The notes beneath the pieces are model-generated. The model saw only the letters and a program-made list of their open reading frames with translations, was not told where the DNA came from and ran no database searches. A program made the position numbers and the translations under genes. A DNA stretch of 62,084 nt, the filler included, from Globobulimina sp. (taxonomy: Eukaryota): the NCBI GenBank assembly GCA_003354225.1. It is 19 parts of 19 records of this genome, joined end to end, with 100 filler letters (N's around TTAATTAATTAA, not from the genome) between each part and the next. Parts side by side here need not be neighbours in the genome. Positions count along the whole stretch, not along the records: positions 19,654 to 22,827 come from PIVH01003506.1; 18 more parts are not named here. One strand, written 5' to 3'. Positions 19,654 through 25,413 of this stretch are shown here, piece after piece; the stretch's first letter is position 1, and each line of letters begins with the position of its first letter.

Positions 19654-20176
19654 AAGAAAATAAAACTTCGAATAATATATAGAACAATAATGTATAACAC
19701 ATTGCAATGCTAAAACAACAACAAACTAAAGCAAGTGCACAATATGGGATAAGAGACCATGCGAACACCATCTTAGCAATAGCCTCTGACTGGCAATCAT
19801 CACTCATCTGATTCACATACATATTTAATCCAATGGCAGCCCAAATTAATTGAAAGATTGCAACACCAATGGAAGGAACTGCCACACATACCACCTCTAT
19901 ACATGCATCAATCTCACTTGATAAAAATGTAGCGCAGCATACAACTATGGAAAGAGCAACCCATCCAATTATAACATATGCACCGATATTTAAAAATGTT
20001 ACTAAATCAATAGTATAAAATTGATCACATTGCGAGTCATTCTCATTATAACCCGCTACTATGACAAGAGCGGCAATTGCTGGGGCTAATGCACAACAGG
20101 CACATCCTTGCGACCCTGTTTCAATTCCGTTTTTATTTTCATCAAGACGCTGATACGTGGCTTGTCTTGAAAGCAT
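19654..20176 (-). CDS. Hypothetical 4-TM Cys-rich membrane protein (3' partial)
   Basis: Four hydrophobic segments with Cys-containing loops. Confidence 0.6.
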
Positions 20177-20228
20177 GATTCAGCAAACTCTGCGAAAATA
20201 ACTTGCAAAATTCTCTGACTTGAGCAGA

Positions 20229-22209
20229 ATGTCAGACAAAGAACAAACACATCTAAAGCAATACATTCCATACGTATTAAGTGGAGCCAGTTTAGCACTC
20301 TCATGCTACGCTGTCTACCACATCGCCAAATCAAAGCATAACAAACACGCATTGCCTACACCCAGCAAAGTCAAACAGTCCTCTTATAATTACAGCAGCA
20401 AAGAGTCCATTGATGTCGTGACAGCCGACAATGACGACAACTGTGGAACAGCAACATTATCGCGCATAATGCTTCCAGACGATGCAAACTCCAGCGGTAA
20501 TATCCATGGTGGCACTATACTAAAAATGATAAGTCATATCGGATACTTATCCGCCACACGATTCATTAACAGAAACATCAATGCATCGCAGGAATCAAAC
20601 TCCGGCAAGTTCGAGTATCGCGGTGTCTTGGTAAGAATGGAAGAAACCAATTTTAAATTACCAATGTACATCGGAGAAATATGCATTTGTAACGCTAAGG
20701 TAACATTTACATCCAATCAATCATTGGAAGTTCAAGTTAATTGTTTTTTATTTTTTTTTTATTTATTATCCAATTCAATAAATTGCATCATAAAAACAGG
20801 TGCGTGTCATTGCGGAGAATACGATTTCCGGCTTACAAAGAAGCACTAACTCCGCAACAATGTGGTTTGTCGGCGTCAGAATGCCGAAAATTATAAACAC
20901 ACCGCATACGTTCGAGAAACGAGATGTTATTCAAATTCCTGCACTAAACCTCCGATCTAATGATTACAAACTCGGTCAAAAACGCTATGAAAAGCAAAAA
21001 TTGTTTCGCAATAAAGATGCACAGATAAACATATTACACGCAGTAGATTTGAATGAATGGACCGACAGATTACTGTGCAAAGAGTCATTTGATAAACGCA
21101 GAAACGGTGCCACTGTGTTTAAGTTGTCGCGCGTGACATTGCCGTCCGACTGCTTTGCTACGCAATGGACCACCGTCGATGGGGGATATATTATGAAATT
21201 AATGGACAATGTGGCTGGAGGGGTGGCCTGCCAATGGAGCAAAAACCGGGTGGTGACCGTGCATATAAATGCAATCAACTTCCACGCGCCGGTCAACGCA
21301 GGCAATGTATGCCATTGTTATGGCCGATTGGTGTTTACATCCAAGAGATCGATGGAAATTTATGTACTCACATTTGTGCAGACACTCAAAGCTGAAAACG
21401 TTGTCGATGCGAAGGAGAATGGAAATATCTATAAAATGTTAGGACAGCATCGATTGAAATTAGTATGCTCTGCGTTTTTCACATTCGTTGCGTTGGACTC
21501 TGAAAACCAGACAAAAACGACTGATGTGCCATTGTTTACACCGCATTCTGCGTTCGAGAAAATGTGCCATAATGAGGCGGAGTTAGGATATCAACAACGC
21601 AAAAATGCCAAGAAAAGGCATAAAAAAAATAAATATAAACCATCGGTGGTGGTGGGTCCCAGCGGTGTGGGCAAAGGCACATTGTTGACAGCGTTGAAAC
21701 ATAGCTTTCCGAGTAAATTTGCGGTGGCCGTATCGCATACGACACGTAAACCGAGACAGGGCGAGGTTGATGGCGTAGATTATAATTTTGTGAGTATGGA
21801 AGAATTTGAACATGAAATAAAGGAGAATAAGTTTATTGAATATGCCAAAACGTATGGAAATTTGTACGGAACTTCAAAAAAAGCAGTGCAGCATGTTATG
21901 GATAGTAAGAAAATATGTTTATTGGAGATAGATTATGTCGGTGCTAAATTGATCAAACAGTCATGCATTGAGGCGAATTATTTATTTATTACGGTAAATG
22001 GTGAAGGCGAGACTTGTAAAAAAAGGATTGAAGGCAGAGGGACGGAGAATAAACAACAGATTGCAAAGAGAGTACTTACTGCAAAGAATGAGTTTGCATT
22101 TTTTAACAATAATAGAGATTTCTTTGATGCTTTCATATCCAATGATGATTTAACTGAAGCCAGTAAGCAAATCACTGAATTGTTTGGCAAATGGTATGAT
22201 TGGCTTTGA
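20229..22209 (+). CDS. Double-hotdog acyl-CoA thioesterase (ACOT7/YciA-like) fused to guanylate kinase, 638 aa
   Basis: Exons 20229-20735 and 20800-22209 (64-nt GT-AG intron). Hotdog 1 MLPDDANSSGNIHGGTILKMI; hotdog 2 VDGGYIMKLMDNVAG..FTSKRSMEI..FTFVALD; GUK GPSGVGKGT, SHTTRKPRQGEVDGVDYNF, GNLYGTS, LEIDYVGA. N-terminal hydrophobic anchor. Confidence 0.9.
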
Positions 22210-22927
22210 TAGATATGATATGTGGTATTTTGTTTAGCTTAACAGTTGTTTACAGTACTTAGTAAAGACTCAAATGCTTACTTGAGCTTCAAGAATGTCG
22301 TCTTAACTGCTCGTAATATTATACTTCAAATAGCCATATTATAAAAATGGGTTGTTCTACATCAACATTGGACGACGATCCACATCCGCATCATGCATCA
22401 GCAAATACAGAAAATCAGCCAAACAAAGCTCGAAAGGATATAAATGATGCTAAAGATGAAGAAGTAATAACGTATGAAAATAATGAATCCCAAGGCAATA
22501 AATTTATATCCAATGAAGATTTGTAAATAAATTGATTATTATTAAATTATTCCATTTTTTGTTCATATTTATAATTATTATATTGTCATATATATATAAT
22601 AGCAGTTGCTCCGTGCATATAACATCAATAACATCAATCAAAGTATTATTTGTATAATAAATGACGTTATTCACTCTCAATTAATATAAATGAATGACAG
22701 ATTATCATTAGAGCTGACCATTGACTTCGATTTTCTTTTTTTTGTGTCATATTTTAATAATTTCAACATATTTTAATAATGTCATGCATTTATAAAAAAT
22801 GAAAAACAGTATCAAGTAACACATCGGNNNNNNNNNNNNNNNNNNNNNNNNNNNNNNNNNNNNNNNNNNNNTTAATTAATTAANNNNNNNNNNNNNNNNN
22901 NNNNNNNNNNNNNNNNNNNNNNNNNNN

Positions 22928-22989: not shown

Positions 22990-23149
22990 CTATACTAATA
23001 CTATCCAAATGATATGGCAAATCGGAGTTATTTGTGTTAGCATTTTGTGGTGGATTGGCTCCTTATTCGTGGACCATTTTGAAATCGAATTTAATTCGTG
23101 CAACGCGAGAGTGATCGATTCGGTGTTGTTGTCCGTGAGCAAAGTTACA

Positions 23150-25413
23150 AGATCTCAGACGATTTGAATGAGAATTTGTTCGATGAGCTGATCCATTACA
23201 ACGAGGACAGCTTTCAAGAGCATTTATTGAGCAAATCGTTGGGCGCTGCCATGCATATTATACTCAACAAATGCAATGGCAAACTGCAGCTCACTACGAA
23301 GGAAAAGAATGTGTTGTCGTGGTGTCAGGCCAACAGCGAGTATGGCTGCGGCACGCATTTGAAGCACACCTCTATGATCCATTGGAAGCAGGACGAACAA
23401 TGGAATATGCGCTTTCAGGGCAAGCACAAGTTTATCAATCACGGCTACACTCCGATTGTGTGCTCCTTGCCACTCAAATACGAGCACATTACGCCGCCGA
23501 CAGCGCAGCAAAACGCGCAGTACACTGCACTGGATACAGCCGCTACTTTGTTCGACATCCATTTGAATCGCGCAGTGGTGAAAATAAAGTGGTTTACGAA
23601 GGAGAGGGACGGCATCAACAACAAAGTCTGTGTGTATAGCAAGGATGGCGACGAGTTCATAGGCGATTGCTGTTTGGTGACGGTGCCTCACGGCGTGTTG
23701 AAAAAAGAGGCCATTCAGTTCACGCCGGCTTTGCCAGCGCAGAAACTCAACGCGATCAAAGCAATGGGCTTTGGCAATCTGAACAAAATGGTGTTGAGGT
23801 TTGCTTATAAGTTCTGGAGCGACAATATCTATTTTCATTATGCGCGCGAGATCTACGCCGATGCGGATGCGGACAGTGGCGGCGACAGTGCGCAGTACGA
23901 CTTCTTTGCAGACAATGAGCGCGGGCAAGCTTTTACGTTTTGGAACTTGCACAAAGTGACTGGCGCGCCCATCTTAGTGGCGCTATATTCCGGCAATTCG
24001 AGCTATGACTTTGAGCGCATGCACGACGAGCAAATCAAGGCGGATATCATGAGTGTGTTGGTCAAGATATTTGGCGCCGACAATGTGTGCCAGCCGTTGG
24101 ATTTCGAGCGGACGAGTTGGAGCATGGACGAGTACGCCGGCGGCTGCTATGCGTACTGCGAGAAGGACGGCAATAACTCGTACATTGAGATGAGCAAAGC
24201 CGTGGACGACATCTTGTTTTTTGCGGGCGAGCATTGCTGCAAAGAGACGCCGGACACCGTAGGCGGTGCCTATGTGAGTGGATTGCGCGCCGCGGGCTGT
24301 ATTGAGAAAAGTTGCCGTGATGCCGCGCCGTTTGAGGACACTTTTCCGTTCGTGAAAACTGCAAAGAAGCTGGAAAAGGAGAGAGAGAAAATAAAGTCGA
24401 CGGAGCGGCCGTTTGCGTACCAGATTGATAATGGGGTGCGGCGGCGGACGGACATCGCGCGCATTTATTCTACGTACAGCGTTAAGGAGAACAATCAGTA
24501 TAAGGACGCAGTGCTGAATAAGGACCAAGTGGTGGAGTGCGAGGCCGGTGAGATGGAGAAGGAAAGGAATGCTTTGATGAGCGGGATATTTGAGACTGGC
24601 GTCGTCGAAGAGGAGGAGGACGAGAATAAGGAAGCGATGGATTTGAATATGAATGAGGAGGAGGAGGGGGAGGAAGATGATGATATTAATGTGGTGGATG
24701 AGAGGGGTCATATTCTAAATAATGAGAACAGTAATAATGCGTTGCTGCCATCCATCAAATCGTGTATTGATAAACATGGCGGATTGTCGGATTTGGTGGA
24801 GATTATTGACAGCAATGACGAGAGCGAGAAAAGTCATAATCATAATCATAACCGACACCGTTCGTCGTCGTCGTCGCACAAGAAAGGCAAGAAAAAAAAG
24901 CATCATTCGAATTCATCAAAAAACAAACATAGCAAGAAAATAAAAAGCGTACGAAAGTCCAAACATAGTAAGAGCAGCGGAGGTGGCCATGGCGGCAAAC
25001 ATAAACATAGCAAGTCGTCATCGTCGGCGTCGGCGTCGTCGTCGTCGAAAAGAAAGAAGAAAGACCGAATTGATTTAACTAAAAATAGTTCGAATATTAA
25101 TTCCGATGAGAAAATATCTGGAATGTCGAATGAGGCGAAGAAATTACTGAAAGATGGAAAAGATAAAATTGGTCACTTTGCGCGCAAACATTTGGCCAAA
25201 GCACTTTCTGACATTGAATATGACAAAGAAGATTTCAAAAATATTGCCAAAAAAGTGACAAATAAAGTTTTTGATGACTTCCGTAAGAAATTCAAACATT
25301 CGAAATCGGTCAACAGTCTCAATTATGACTCCTTTATGGCTTCCAAAAGAAAACGCAAAGTCGAAGATTTAATCAAAGCATATGTCAAAAGAGACATTTC
25401 TAACAAAAAATAA
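23150..25413 (+). CDS. LSD1/KDM1-family flavin amine oxidase with C-terminal SRI-like domain (plant LDL3-like; 5' missing)
   Basis: VTVPHGVLK..FTPALP..GFGNLNKMVLRF..FW, FWNLHKVTGAPILVAL and FFAGEH..PDTVGGAYVSGLRAA. C-terminal KEDFKNIAKKVTNKV..KVEDLIKAYVKR is SRI-like. Confidence 0.8.

Follow-up and report, generated by a model that had tools for sequence, protein, structure and literature searches.

Does a single gene at this foraminiferal locus join an acyl-CoA thioesterase to a guanylate kinase, and if so, what could the joining of these two enzymes be for? Sequence alone offers few hints that two activities cooperate; conserved domain fusions are one of them, and we know of no textbook pathway that joins long-chain acyl-CoA hydrolysis and GMP phosphorylation. 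The window, i.e. the whole stretch of 62,084 nucleotides that was analyzed, consists of 19 short contigs and 18 spacers, and genuine context for the fusion gene is limited to positions 19654-22827 (3,174 bases). No second copy was found when the orthologue P0003 was compared with the whole window by tblastn.

Structure of the fusion gene

The initial annotation had described one gene whose product has a hydrophobic helix at its N-terminus, followed by a double hotdog thioesterase and a guanylate kinase with intact motifs, with hotdog 2 and the complete kinase domain within one exon. Both descriptions agree with the gene model, which is as follows.

20229..20735, plus strand: exon 1, 169 codons, with the start codon, the N-terminal helix, a variable spacer and most of hotdog 1
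20736..20799, plus strand: intron, 64 nt, GT..AG, 16% G+C
20800..22209, plus strand: exon 2, 469 codons and the stop, a single unbroken ORF with, in order, the end of hotdog 1, interdomain helices, hotdog 2, a basic tail and the guanylate kinase

The spliced frame is open throughout its 638 codons and gives a product of 638 aa. The ATG at 20229 is the earliest in-frame ATG past the stop that precedes 20202, and the orthologues start alike. The end of exon 1 was set by orthologue sequence and by intron-less contigs; a second donor GT at 20699/20700, which also keeps the frame, was ruled out by the same sequences in favor of the donor at 20736. An ORF scan showed an open frame from 20794 to 22209 (471 aa) with no stop between hotdog 2 and the kinase, and Pfam recognized both domains on the single 3' exon, 4HBT at 1.9e-08 (34.9 bits) and Guanylate_kin at 3.7e-49 (167.3 bits).

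The fusion is genuine and transcribed

A fusion seen on a contig as short as 3,174 bases could be an assembly chimera, or two adjacent genes could have been taken as one, and the listed contigs of run X1 leave 21392-21612 without cover. Such holes are not evidence, and the same applies to the one at about 20184-20381 in X2. Independent sequence does cross the junction, as one contig from a related strain (X6 record 21) is unbroken from 21211 to 21684, that is from hotdog 2 into the P-loop, and the X2 records 11, 12/13 and 14 tile 20382-22266 with overlaps of 30 bases. The same joint is moreover present in at least eight independent proteins of other organisms and in two fragments, and there is no stop codon between the domains, which together reduce the probability of a chimera or of a merged gene pair to almost nothing. 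A check for relatives with two separate genes did not overturn the fusion either, as the relatives carry the same joint.

Positions 20736-20799 are precisely absent from contigs of runs X2, X6 and X8, which come from three independent studies, and are present in an X1 contig. These three runs are termed cDNA-like because their contigs lack the intron, which is the sole ground for the label, and no run is recorded as RNA. Taken together, the fusion gene is a genuine, transcribed foraminiferal gene.

Distribution and conservation of the fusion

PF03061 and PF00625 occur together in 8 of the 120 matches listed from a single-sequence search, and a profile search gave the same count. Four named species are among these eight (Bolivina argentea, Ammonia sp., Nonionella stella and Elphidium margaritaceum), and the same architecture was seen in the transcriptomes of Bolivina, Ammonia, Nonionella and Elphidium as well as in environmental contigs. 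Additional fragments across the thioesterase-kinase joint are P0253 and P0015. In the searches made, no proteins with both domains were found outside this foraminiferal and environmental fusion family, and no Atlas cluster combining 4HBT with Guanylate_kin was found (best scores 0.77, below 0.9). A literature search over titles and abstract openings found no published description of a thioesterase-guanylate kinase fusion, and to that extent the first impression that the architecture is undocumented among characterized proteins holds so far. The domain architecture is new, and it is assembled from two well-known enzymes.

Among seven orthologues the mean pairwise identity is 0.72 for the kinase, 0.68 for hotdog 2, 0.67 for hotdog 1 and 0.20 for the spacer. 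By this measure the three presumed catalytic modules, both hotdogs and the kinase, are constrained to a similar degree.

One further protein, P0233, encoded on a contig of 15,261 bases, has the hydrophobic helix and the double hotdog and shows no kinase within its called 438 aa. Possibly, it is an unfused relative, or the gene call may end at an intron.

The thioesterase half

The features of the thioesterase half are the following.

20445..20892, plus strand: hotdog 1, residues 73-200, split by the intron, matching the N-domain of mouse ACOT7
20487-20489, plus strand: putative catalytic Asn87, within the motif PDDANSSGNIHGG
21097..21519, plus strand: hotdog 2, residues 269-409, its PSDC aligned to the PSDC of the ACOT7 C-domain
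21148-21150, plus strand: putative catalytic Asp286, within the motif LPSDC

A single alignment spans both hotdogs of mouse ACOT7 (4zv3/6vfy) with an E of 6.9e-48, and Foldseek against 4zv3 gave a TM of 0.89 on target at 35% identity. Hotdog 1 matches the ACOT7 N-domain with an E of 3.4e-22; its Pfam match to 4HBT is weak (0.0041, 17.8 bits, below the cut-off of 20.6). By these alignments the thioesterase half is an ACOT7-type (TE6) double hotdog. ACOT7 (BACH; 4zv3, 6vfy, 2v1o, 2q2b) shares with it the tandem hotdogs from end to end, the catalytic Asn and Asp, the H-G-G of hotdog 1 and the basic C-terminal helix and tail, but it lacks a guanylate kinase, and the animal ACOT7s in the alignment do not have this hydrophobic N-terminal helix.

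Asn24 and Asp213 of ACOT7 are described as catalytic in PMC2698920, and their counterparts in the alignment are Asn87 (in PDDAN) and Asp286 (in PSDC). The Asn87 motif is kept in every fusion member covering that site and in ACOT7-like proteins, with a few substitutions in the preceding Asp pair, and both ACOT7-site catalytic residues are retained by every fusion member covering them. With the catalytic residues kept, the thioesterase half looks active.

An H-G-G (or F-G-G) triplet opens the central helix of each hotdog, according to PMC10560148. The triplet is H-G-G in hotdog 1, whereas hotdog 2 of the fusion has D-G-G past a two-residue insertion where ACOT7 has H-G-G, and therefore binding of the substrate or of CoA may differ from ACOT7. 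The residue preceding G-G is also variable among other ACOT7-like proteins. The same deviation near the CoA-proximal triplet would fit a reversed coupling, in which the double hotdog acts as an acyl-CoA/CoA sensor or scaffold for the kinase and the supply of GDP follows lipid status, and so would the finding that no other module is as well conserved as the kinase (0.72). However, the hotdogs are conserved nearly as well as the kinase, and the retention of the catalytic residues described above argues against a mere sensor; we regard reversed coupling as improbable.

The guanylate kinase half

The kinase domain and its P-loop are placed as follows.

21631..22206, plus strand: guanylate kinase domain, residues 447-638, Pfam 3.7e-49
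21655-21681, plus strand: P-loop GPSGVGKGT, which fits G-x-x-G-x-G-K

The domain aligns with yeast guanylate kinase (1gky) over its full length at about 50% identity (E 6.5e-42), and Foldseek against GMP-bound 1gky gave a TM of 0.89 on target with an rmsd of 1.9. The same P-loop motif is found in 37 of 39 aligned guanylate kinase domains, and GKGT is the usual form, occurring in 28 of 30 of the other aligned guanylate kinases. Retained are the P-loop Lys, the Ser/Arg/Arg of SHTTRKPR, the Tyr of YNF, the Glu of FIEY, the Tyr of LYGTS, the Asp of LLEID and the lid arginines, and the lid KKRIEGRGTENKQQIAKRV aligns with the yeast lid (R-x-x-x-R-G-T-E ... K-R). The GMP-binding residues of the yeast enzyme, which we take to be Ser34, Arg38, Arg41, Tyr50, Glu69, Tyr78, Ser80 and Asp100, are identical in the fusion save for Ser80, which is Thr, and these positions are conserved across the fusion family. 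Judged by this alignment, the catalytic set looks intact and the kinase half looks active. Yeast and human guanylate kinases (Guk1 1gky/1ex6; GUK1 6nui, 8pts and entries beginning 9ja) match over the full length and have the P-loop, GMP and lid residues in common with the fusion kinase, but they are separate, soluble enzymes of about 190-200 aa, whereas the fusion kinase makes up the C-terminal third of a 638-aa protein and ends in a conserved W-Y-x-W-L that yeast lacks.

The MAGUK proteins (PSD-95, DLG1, MPP5) resemble the fusion in fold, in sequence and in having the domain placed within a larger membrane-associated protein, and their domains are among the sequence matches (MPP5 5.2e-30, DLG about 1e-15), so the kinase-like domain could be read as a non-catalytic binding module of the same kind. 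MAGUK domains are, however, joined to PDZ/SH3, whereas here the partner is an enzyme and the catalytic set appears intact. The P-loop is complete, true kinases far outscore MAGUKs, and Pfam found neither PDZ nor SH3 in the product. In addition, the Ser of wild-type 1gky is kept; it is Pro in the mutant 4f4j, a change by which the yeast enzyme becomes a binding module, as far as the PDB entry titles tell. A MAGUK-like role is thus highly improbable, and the contrast with MAGUK pseudo-kinases drawn in the initial annotation from the P-loop and GMP-binding motifs is confirmed.

The fusion kinases fall in a clade with 100% SH-aLRT support, which also holds kinases without hotdogs, although those sequences may be incomplete. 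Among them, P0024 has the same hydrophobic helix and no hotdogs, and P0042 and P0044 begin with MGSTCSS, a start inferred from where conservation begins, and likewise lack hotdogs. In P0024 two residues of the GMP site are changed (Glu-to-Ala and Asp-to-Ser), and the final ~90 residues match P0003 exactly; the sequence could be a chimera of the assembly, and the support from it is therefore weaker. At least three more proteins of Bolivina have a guanylate kinase domain (P0012, P0024, P0085), and therefore the fusion contains one of several paralogues. In protists, such domains have often been taken up into larger proteins, as shown by the foraminiferal GK-GK-rhodanese-phosphatase proteins (P0011, P0012, P0075) and by Chlamydomonas FAP42 (7n6g); the partners there are others than here, and the kinases belong to a different clade from that of the fusion.

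The N-terminal segment and the linker

Two further segments bear on where the protein would reside and on how its halves are joined.

20265..20318, plus strand: hydrophobic segment, residues 13-30, a probable signal-anchor with a basic C-terminal flank
21520..21630, plus strand: C-terminal helix and basic tail, residues 410-446, which doubles as linker

Identity among the orthologues is 48% over residues 1-40 versus 20% in the spacer after them, and the hydrophobic segment can be aligned across five full-length relatives, P0233 included. For this segment the highest Kyte-Doolittle mean over 19 residues is 1.27, at residue 15, and a transmembrane helix is usually expected to reach at least 1.6 on this scale. 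The membrane anchor proposed at first is a conserved segment but only a moderately hydrophobic one; from its sequence, membrane anchoring of the fusion protein is likely.

The short basic linker QQRKNAKKRHKKNKYKP was found exactly as first quoted, as was the P-loop, but it turns out to be an ordinary basic C-terminal tail of the ACOT7 type, and its length is not conserved. ACOT7-like proteins finish with a similar basic tail in the alignment, and in the model of the orthologue P0003 residues 413-436 form a confident helix. Linker identity among the orthologues is 0.48, and the divergent member P0040 has about 60 extra low-complexity residues. The single-chain model has a pTM of 0.75, above what is expected for freely jointed domains, and the kinase may accordingly be packed on the thioesterase in a partly fixed manner in the predicted structure. 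A separate complex prediction of the P0003 hotdog pair with the kinase domain, made without controls and without a supplied alignment, scored 0.00 and speaks neither way on docking.

What the fusion may be for

The fusion persists in no fewer than four named foraminiferal genera, and selection acts on both halves; it would therefore serve either a local need of these giant, membrane-rich cells for GDP/GTP at a particular membrane or a regulatory connection of acyl-CoA with guanine nucleotides. We lean towards a membrane-tethered bifunctional enzyme, in which the fusion is mainly for co-localization rather than for fixed allostery. The signal-anchor-like helix with its basic C-terminal flank would place the remaining residues on the cytosolic side of an organelle membrane. 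There the double hotdog, probably a trimer as is ACOT7, would hydrolyze acyl-CoA at one composite site formed by the conserved Asn87 and Asp286. The kinase, appended immediately after the basic C-terminal tail that belongs to the thioesterase itself, would use its intact catalytic set to convert GMP and ATP to GDP and ADP. In effect, an extra guanylate kinase paralogue would be brought to the membrane surface of the thioesterase, on a possibly trimeric scaffold. Fixed regulatory docking is less likely than such co-localization because the linker is an ordinary ACOT7-type tail, because its length varies, as P0040 shows, and because the nearest kinase relatives bear other membrane-targeting N-termini and no thioesterase.

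Alternatively, as the initial annotation suggested, the kinase could be a built-in regulator, where binding of GMP/ATP, or locally made GDP and ADP, would switch acyl-CoA hydrolysis, so that acyl-CoA levels at the membrane would follow the guanine-nucleotide or energy status. The nucleotide-regulated precedents named there are ACOT12 and a bacterial single-hotdog GDP-binding enzyme. These TE6 enzymes (ACOT12 4mob; the bacterial GDP-binding 5szu family) belong to the same hotdog thioesterase superfamily as the fusion, and human ACOT12, which is among the Foldseek matches, was solved with ADP. The Foldseek TM to ACOT12 is 0.81-0.87 on target at an identity of only 16-18%, and the sequence match to the 5szu family is about 6e-14. 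In these enzymes, however, the nucleotide acts in trans, and ACOT12 has a START domain rather than a kinase.

Conservation of the fusion with both halves constrained would also fit a regulator, as would the short linker that in most members separates the last thioesterase helix from the kinase, and the whole-chain pTM of 0.75 allows a defined arrangement. A bacterial Atlas cluster of 59 members, 100% with Cytidylate_kin and 98% with 4HBT, points the same way, although with a score of 0.76 it is a lead only. Fusions of a hotdog with a nucleoside-monophosphate kinase may have arisen more than once, and if this cluster is a true parallel it would indicate an unrecognized general link between the two enzyme classes. 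On the other hand, the thioesterase is of the ACOT7 and not the ACOT12 type, the linker is poorly conserved (0.48) and some 60 residues longer in P0040, and the nearest kinase relatives carry membrane anchors and no thioesterase. The literature searched gave no report of nucleotide regulation of ACOT7, and PMC5584527 held nothing useful on nucleotide regulation. A built-in regulator is therefore unlikely, and we hold it quite unlikely that the protein is an allosteric device proper, in which the large open-to-closed movement that the kinase makes when it binds GMP/ATP, or GDP/ADP as its products, gates acyl-CoA hydrolysis in a trimeric core, or acyl-CoA/CoA gates the production of GDP.

If the allosteric reading is true, it would tie the activation state of lipids to the supply of guanine nucleotides at the surface of an organelle. 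Should the halves prove to be independent, the fusion would be a lineage-specific curiosity and chiefly a marker architecture for foraminifera. The fusion protein is a simple test object for nucleotide control of an ACOT7-type enzyme.

Neighboring genes

The contig holds two further features.

19654..20176, minus strand: 5' part of a divergent neighbor, truncated at the contig end, that encodes a cysteine-rich multi-pass membrane protein
22347..22526, plus strand: small downstream ORF of 59 aa that starts MGCSTS, separate from the fusion protein

The start codon of the divergent neighbor lies 52 bp from the fusion ATG. No Pfam family was found for it, and its Atlas matches are unnamed clusters only; contigs of all four runs cover it. 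The downstream 59-aa ORF likewise has no Pfam family, and here the summed contig depth of X2 exceeds the depth over the fusion gene several-fold.

Gene model and reality of the fusion

The thioesterase-guanylate kinase fusion is real, and it is one gene with one spliced message. An ORF scan found 20794-22209 open in one frame, and Pfam domains 4HBT (1.9e-08) and a full Guanylate_kin (3.7e-49, profile positions 2-179 of 182) both lie inside it, in agreement with the initial annotation, which had placed hotdog 2 and the kinase in a single uninterrupted exon and whose quoted linker and P-loop sequences were found exactly so in the window. ATG 20229 is the first to follow an in-frame stop, and the frame from there encodes a further hotdog domain that stays below the Pfam threshold (17.8 vs 20.6 bits) and matches the N-domain of mouse ACOT7 (E 3.4e-22). 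The orthologue sequence over the exon joint (...NAxVTFTSNxSLEVQVxVIAEN...) places the splice donor at 20736; an in-frame GT at 20700 was ruled out as donor by the same sequence. Contigs from three studies (X2 record 11, X6 record 20, X8 record 26; X numbers denote sequencing runs and records their assembled contigs) match the window as far as 20734 and again from 20800, a single record base separating the two blocks, and exactly 64 bases, 20736-20799, are missing from them. X1 record 5 (20419-21391) retains these bases.

20736-20799, + strand: intron, 64 nt, GT..AG, 16% G+C

Once spliced, the gene reads through 638 codons to its stop. In the X6 and X8 contigs, from related strains (~94% identical), three bases (AAA) are inserted in frame behind 20894, which fits a constrained coding region. 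Reads or transcripts over the junction were named as a check in the initial annotation, and contigs do cross the joint: X6 record 21 extends unbroken from 21211 (hotdog 2 core) to 21684 (beyond the P-loop), and X2, near-identical to the window, tiles 20382-22266 by records 11, 12/13 and 14 with 30-base overlaps.

Spread of the fusion

In a single-sequence search of 5.8 billion protein clusters, with domains read off the 120 matches listed, PF03061 and PF00625 occurred together in at least eight of these proteins (P0003-P0009 and P0040), and a profile search recovered the same eight. Half of them are transcriptome proteins of named foraminifera (Bolivina argentea, Ammonia sp., Nonionella stella and Elphidium margaritaceum), the Bolivina fusion showing 76% identity over exon 2; P0253 and P0015 are additional fragments crossing the joint. 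The initial annotation had raised the prospect of two separate genes in relatives; the same fusion is present in, and conserved across, at least four named foraminiferal genera. Of the 150 proteins listed from an exhaustive search of 1.84 billion representatives, only P0008 and P0233 matched best in the hotdog part, and a Pfam scan of 17 proteins (14 from those 150) found both domains in P0040 alone. The other proteins matched by the profile have either the ACOT7 part alone, these being from animals and protists at 33-41% identity, or the kinase alone. Among the fusion proteins from the single-sequence and profile searches none has an NCBI or UniRef source, and these searches returned no named database record with a 4HBT-Guanylate_kin architecture; nor did the titles and abstract starts of the papers retrieved yield a description of it. 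Both enzyme families are textbook, so what is new is the domain architecture.

The two enzyme halves

A single alignment of mouse ACOT7 (4zv3) spans both hotdogs (E 6.9e-48). The structure model of the full fusion orthologue P0003 (mean pLDDT 86.9, pTM 0.75) aligns with 4zv3 at TM 0.89 on the target and 35% identity, and more poorly with ACOT12. Excerpts of two papers give the catalytic residues of mouse ACOT7 as Asn24 in the N-domain and Asp213 in the C-domain (PMC2698920), and place His30, which heads an H-G-G triplet, six residues past Asn24 (PMC10560148). The aligned counterparts in the window are PDDANSSGNIHGG (Asn87) and LPSDC (Asp286), which shows, at the level of sequence, an ACOT7-type core with the catalytic pair kept. 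Unlike ACOT7, the fusion family has a two-residue insertion in hotdog 2 and D-G-G in place of H-G-G.

ACOT7-like proteins and the fusion family share the same sort of basic C-terminal tail (R-Y-E-x-R-K-x-x-R...). The linker is a normal ACOT7-like tail of this kind, and the kinase was thus added behind an ordinary ACOT7 C-terminus. In the P0003 model the segment preceding the kinase is a confident helix (residues 413-436), and hotdog-less relatives too have the Y-K-P that immediately precedes the first kinase strand. Of the structured parts, the tail is conserved least (mean pairwise identity 0.48), and the linker of P0040, a divergent fusion member, is ~60 residues longer.

The kinase domain aligns full-length with yeast guanylate kinase (E 6.5e-42) and in the P0003 model is closest to the GMP-bound yeast structure 1gky (rmsd 1.9). 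The P-loop lysine, SHTTRKPR, the Tyr of YNF, the Glu of FIEY, LYGTS, LLEID and the lid arginines are all kept, and at the GMP-contact positions of the yeast enzyme the sole change is Ser-to-Thr. The P-loop ends in G-K-G-T, not G-K-S-T, likewise in 37 of the 39 aligned kinase domains. The position that is Pro in 4f4j, a yeast guanylate kinase engineered into a binding module, is Ser here. These comparisons show the kinase to be intact. A MAGUK-like module was rejected, the domain being a kinase by every sequence criterion applied; the yeast alignment and the 4f4j serine bear out the earlier view that P-loop and GMP-site motifs are intact, unlike in MAGUK proteins.

Relatives of the kinase

A quick maximum-likelihood analysis of 52 kinase domains groups nine of ten fusion kinases with three hotdog-less proteins in one clade (100% SH-aLRT). 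The tenth, P0040, groups apart with P0070 and P0073, and may or may not share a single origin with the other nine. Two relatives, P0042 and P0044, are alike only from M-G-S-T-C-S-S onward and probably start at this myristoylation/palmitoylation-like motif. P0024, a Bolivina argentea transcript model, carries the same hydrophobic helix almost directly on the kinase, without hotdogs. This model is suspect: over the final ~90 residues it agrees with P0003 at every position, elsewhere the identity is ~75%, and two residues of the GMP site differ. A paralogue, an isoform and an assembly chimera would all be possible explanations. Bolivina also has P0012 (GK-GK-rhodanese-phosphatase) and P0085, so the fused kinase is one paralogue among several.

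Foraminifera have a further unusual kinase fusion, in which rhodanese and dual-specificity phosphatase domains come after a pair of guanylate kinase domains: P0011 (Ammonia sp.), P0012 (Bolivina argentea) and P0075. An Atlas bacterial cluster (59 members, ~355 aa, commonest phylum Lentisphaerota; similarity score only 0.76) has Cytidylate_kin in 100% and 4HBT in 98%, and as a lead it is a possible independent fusion of hotdog thioesterase and nucleoside-monophosphate kinase.

Constraint, anchoring and possible function

Conservation was taken as mean pairwise identity among seven orthologues.

Mean pairwise identity by segment of the fusion protein
Guanylate kinase: 0.72
Hotdog 2: 0.68
Hotdog 1: 0.67
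Interdomain helices: 0.50
N-terminal 40 residues: 0.48
Basic tail (linker): 0.48
Spacer: 0.20

Residues 13-30 are hydrophobic and conserved, with many small residues and a moderate hydropathy (1.27); the flank on the N-side is near neutral and that on the C-side strongly basic. The positive-inside rule would put the catalytic domains on the cytosolic side. Moderate hydrophobicity with a basic C-flank is typical of signal-anchored mitochondrial outer membrane proteins; the stretch is a candidate N-terminal anchor for that membrane or, equally possible, the ER. The protein would then be tethered with a thioesterase and a guanylate kinase, both predicted to be active, on the cytosolic side, and may form trimers as ACOT7 does.

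The initial annotation proposed a switch in which nucleotides regulate acyl-CoA hydrolysis. By the title of structure entry 4mob (human ACOT12 with ADP) and one further title, related thioesterases do bind nucleotides, and the predicted single-chain pTM of 0.75 gives no argument for free domains; however, the linker varies in length and sister kinases carry alternative anchors, and we consider such a switch unlikely. Because of this variable linker and these other anchors we favour co-localisation: the fusion probably holds a specialised paralogue of the kinase on a thioesterase that serves as a membrane-bound scaffold.

Genomic context

The window holds 36 runs of 44 N, paired around TTAATTAATTAA, which gives 18 spacers and 19 pieces of ~3.2 kb each. 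It is thus 19 contigs joined by N44-TTAATTAATTAA-N44 spacers, and its 62,084 bases are not one locus. The fusion gene lies wholly within piece 19654-22827 (3,174 bases), which alone is its real genomic context; features in different pieces are not genomic neighbours.

19654-20176, - strand: ORF of a divergent gene for a cysteine-rich multi-pass membrane protein, truncated at the contig end
22347-22526, + strand: 59-aa ORF starting M-G-C-S-T-S, just 3' of the fusion gene
23098-25410, + strand: long ORF with a flavin-containing amine oxidoreductase domain (Pfam Amino_oxidase 8.3e-42), on another contig than the fusion gene

The start codons of the divergent gene and the fusion gene are separated by only 52 bp. 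Pfam scans of the membrane-protein gene and of the 59-aa ORF gave no family; the closest Atlas clusters to the former are unnamed (scores 0.92-0.93), two with mostly giant-virus members. The start of the 59-aa ORF appears myristoylation/palmitoylation-like, and X2 contig depth over it is several times that of the fusion gene. The oxidoreductase ORF has a long lysine/serine-rich low-complexity tail.
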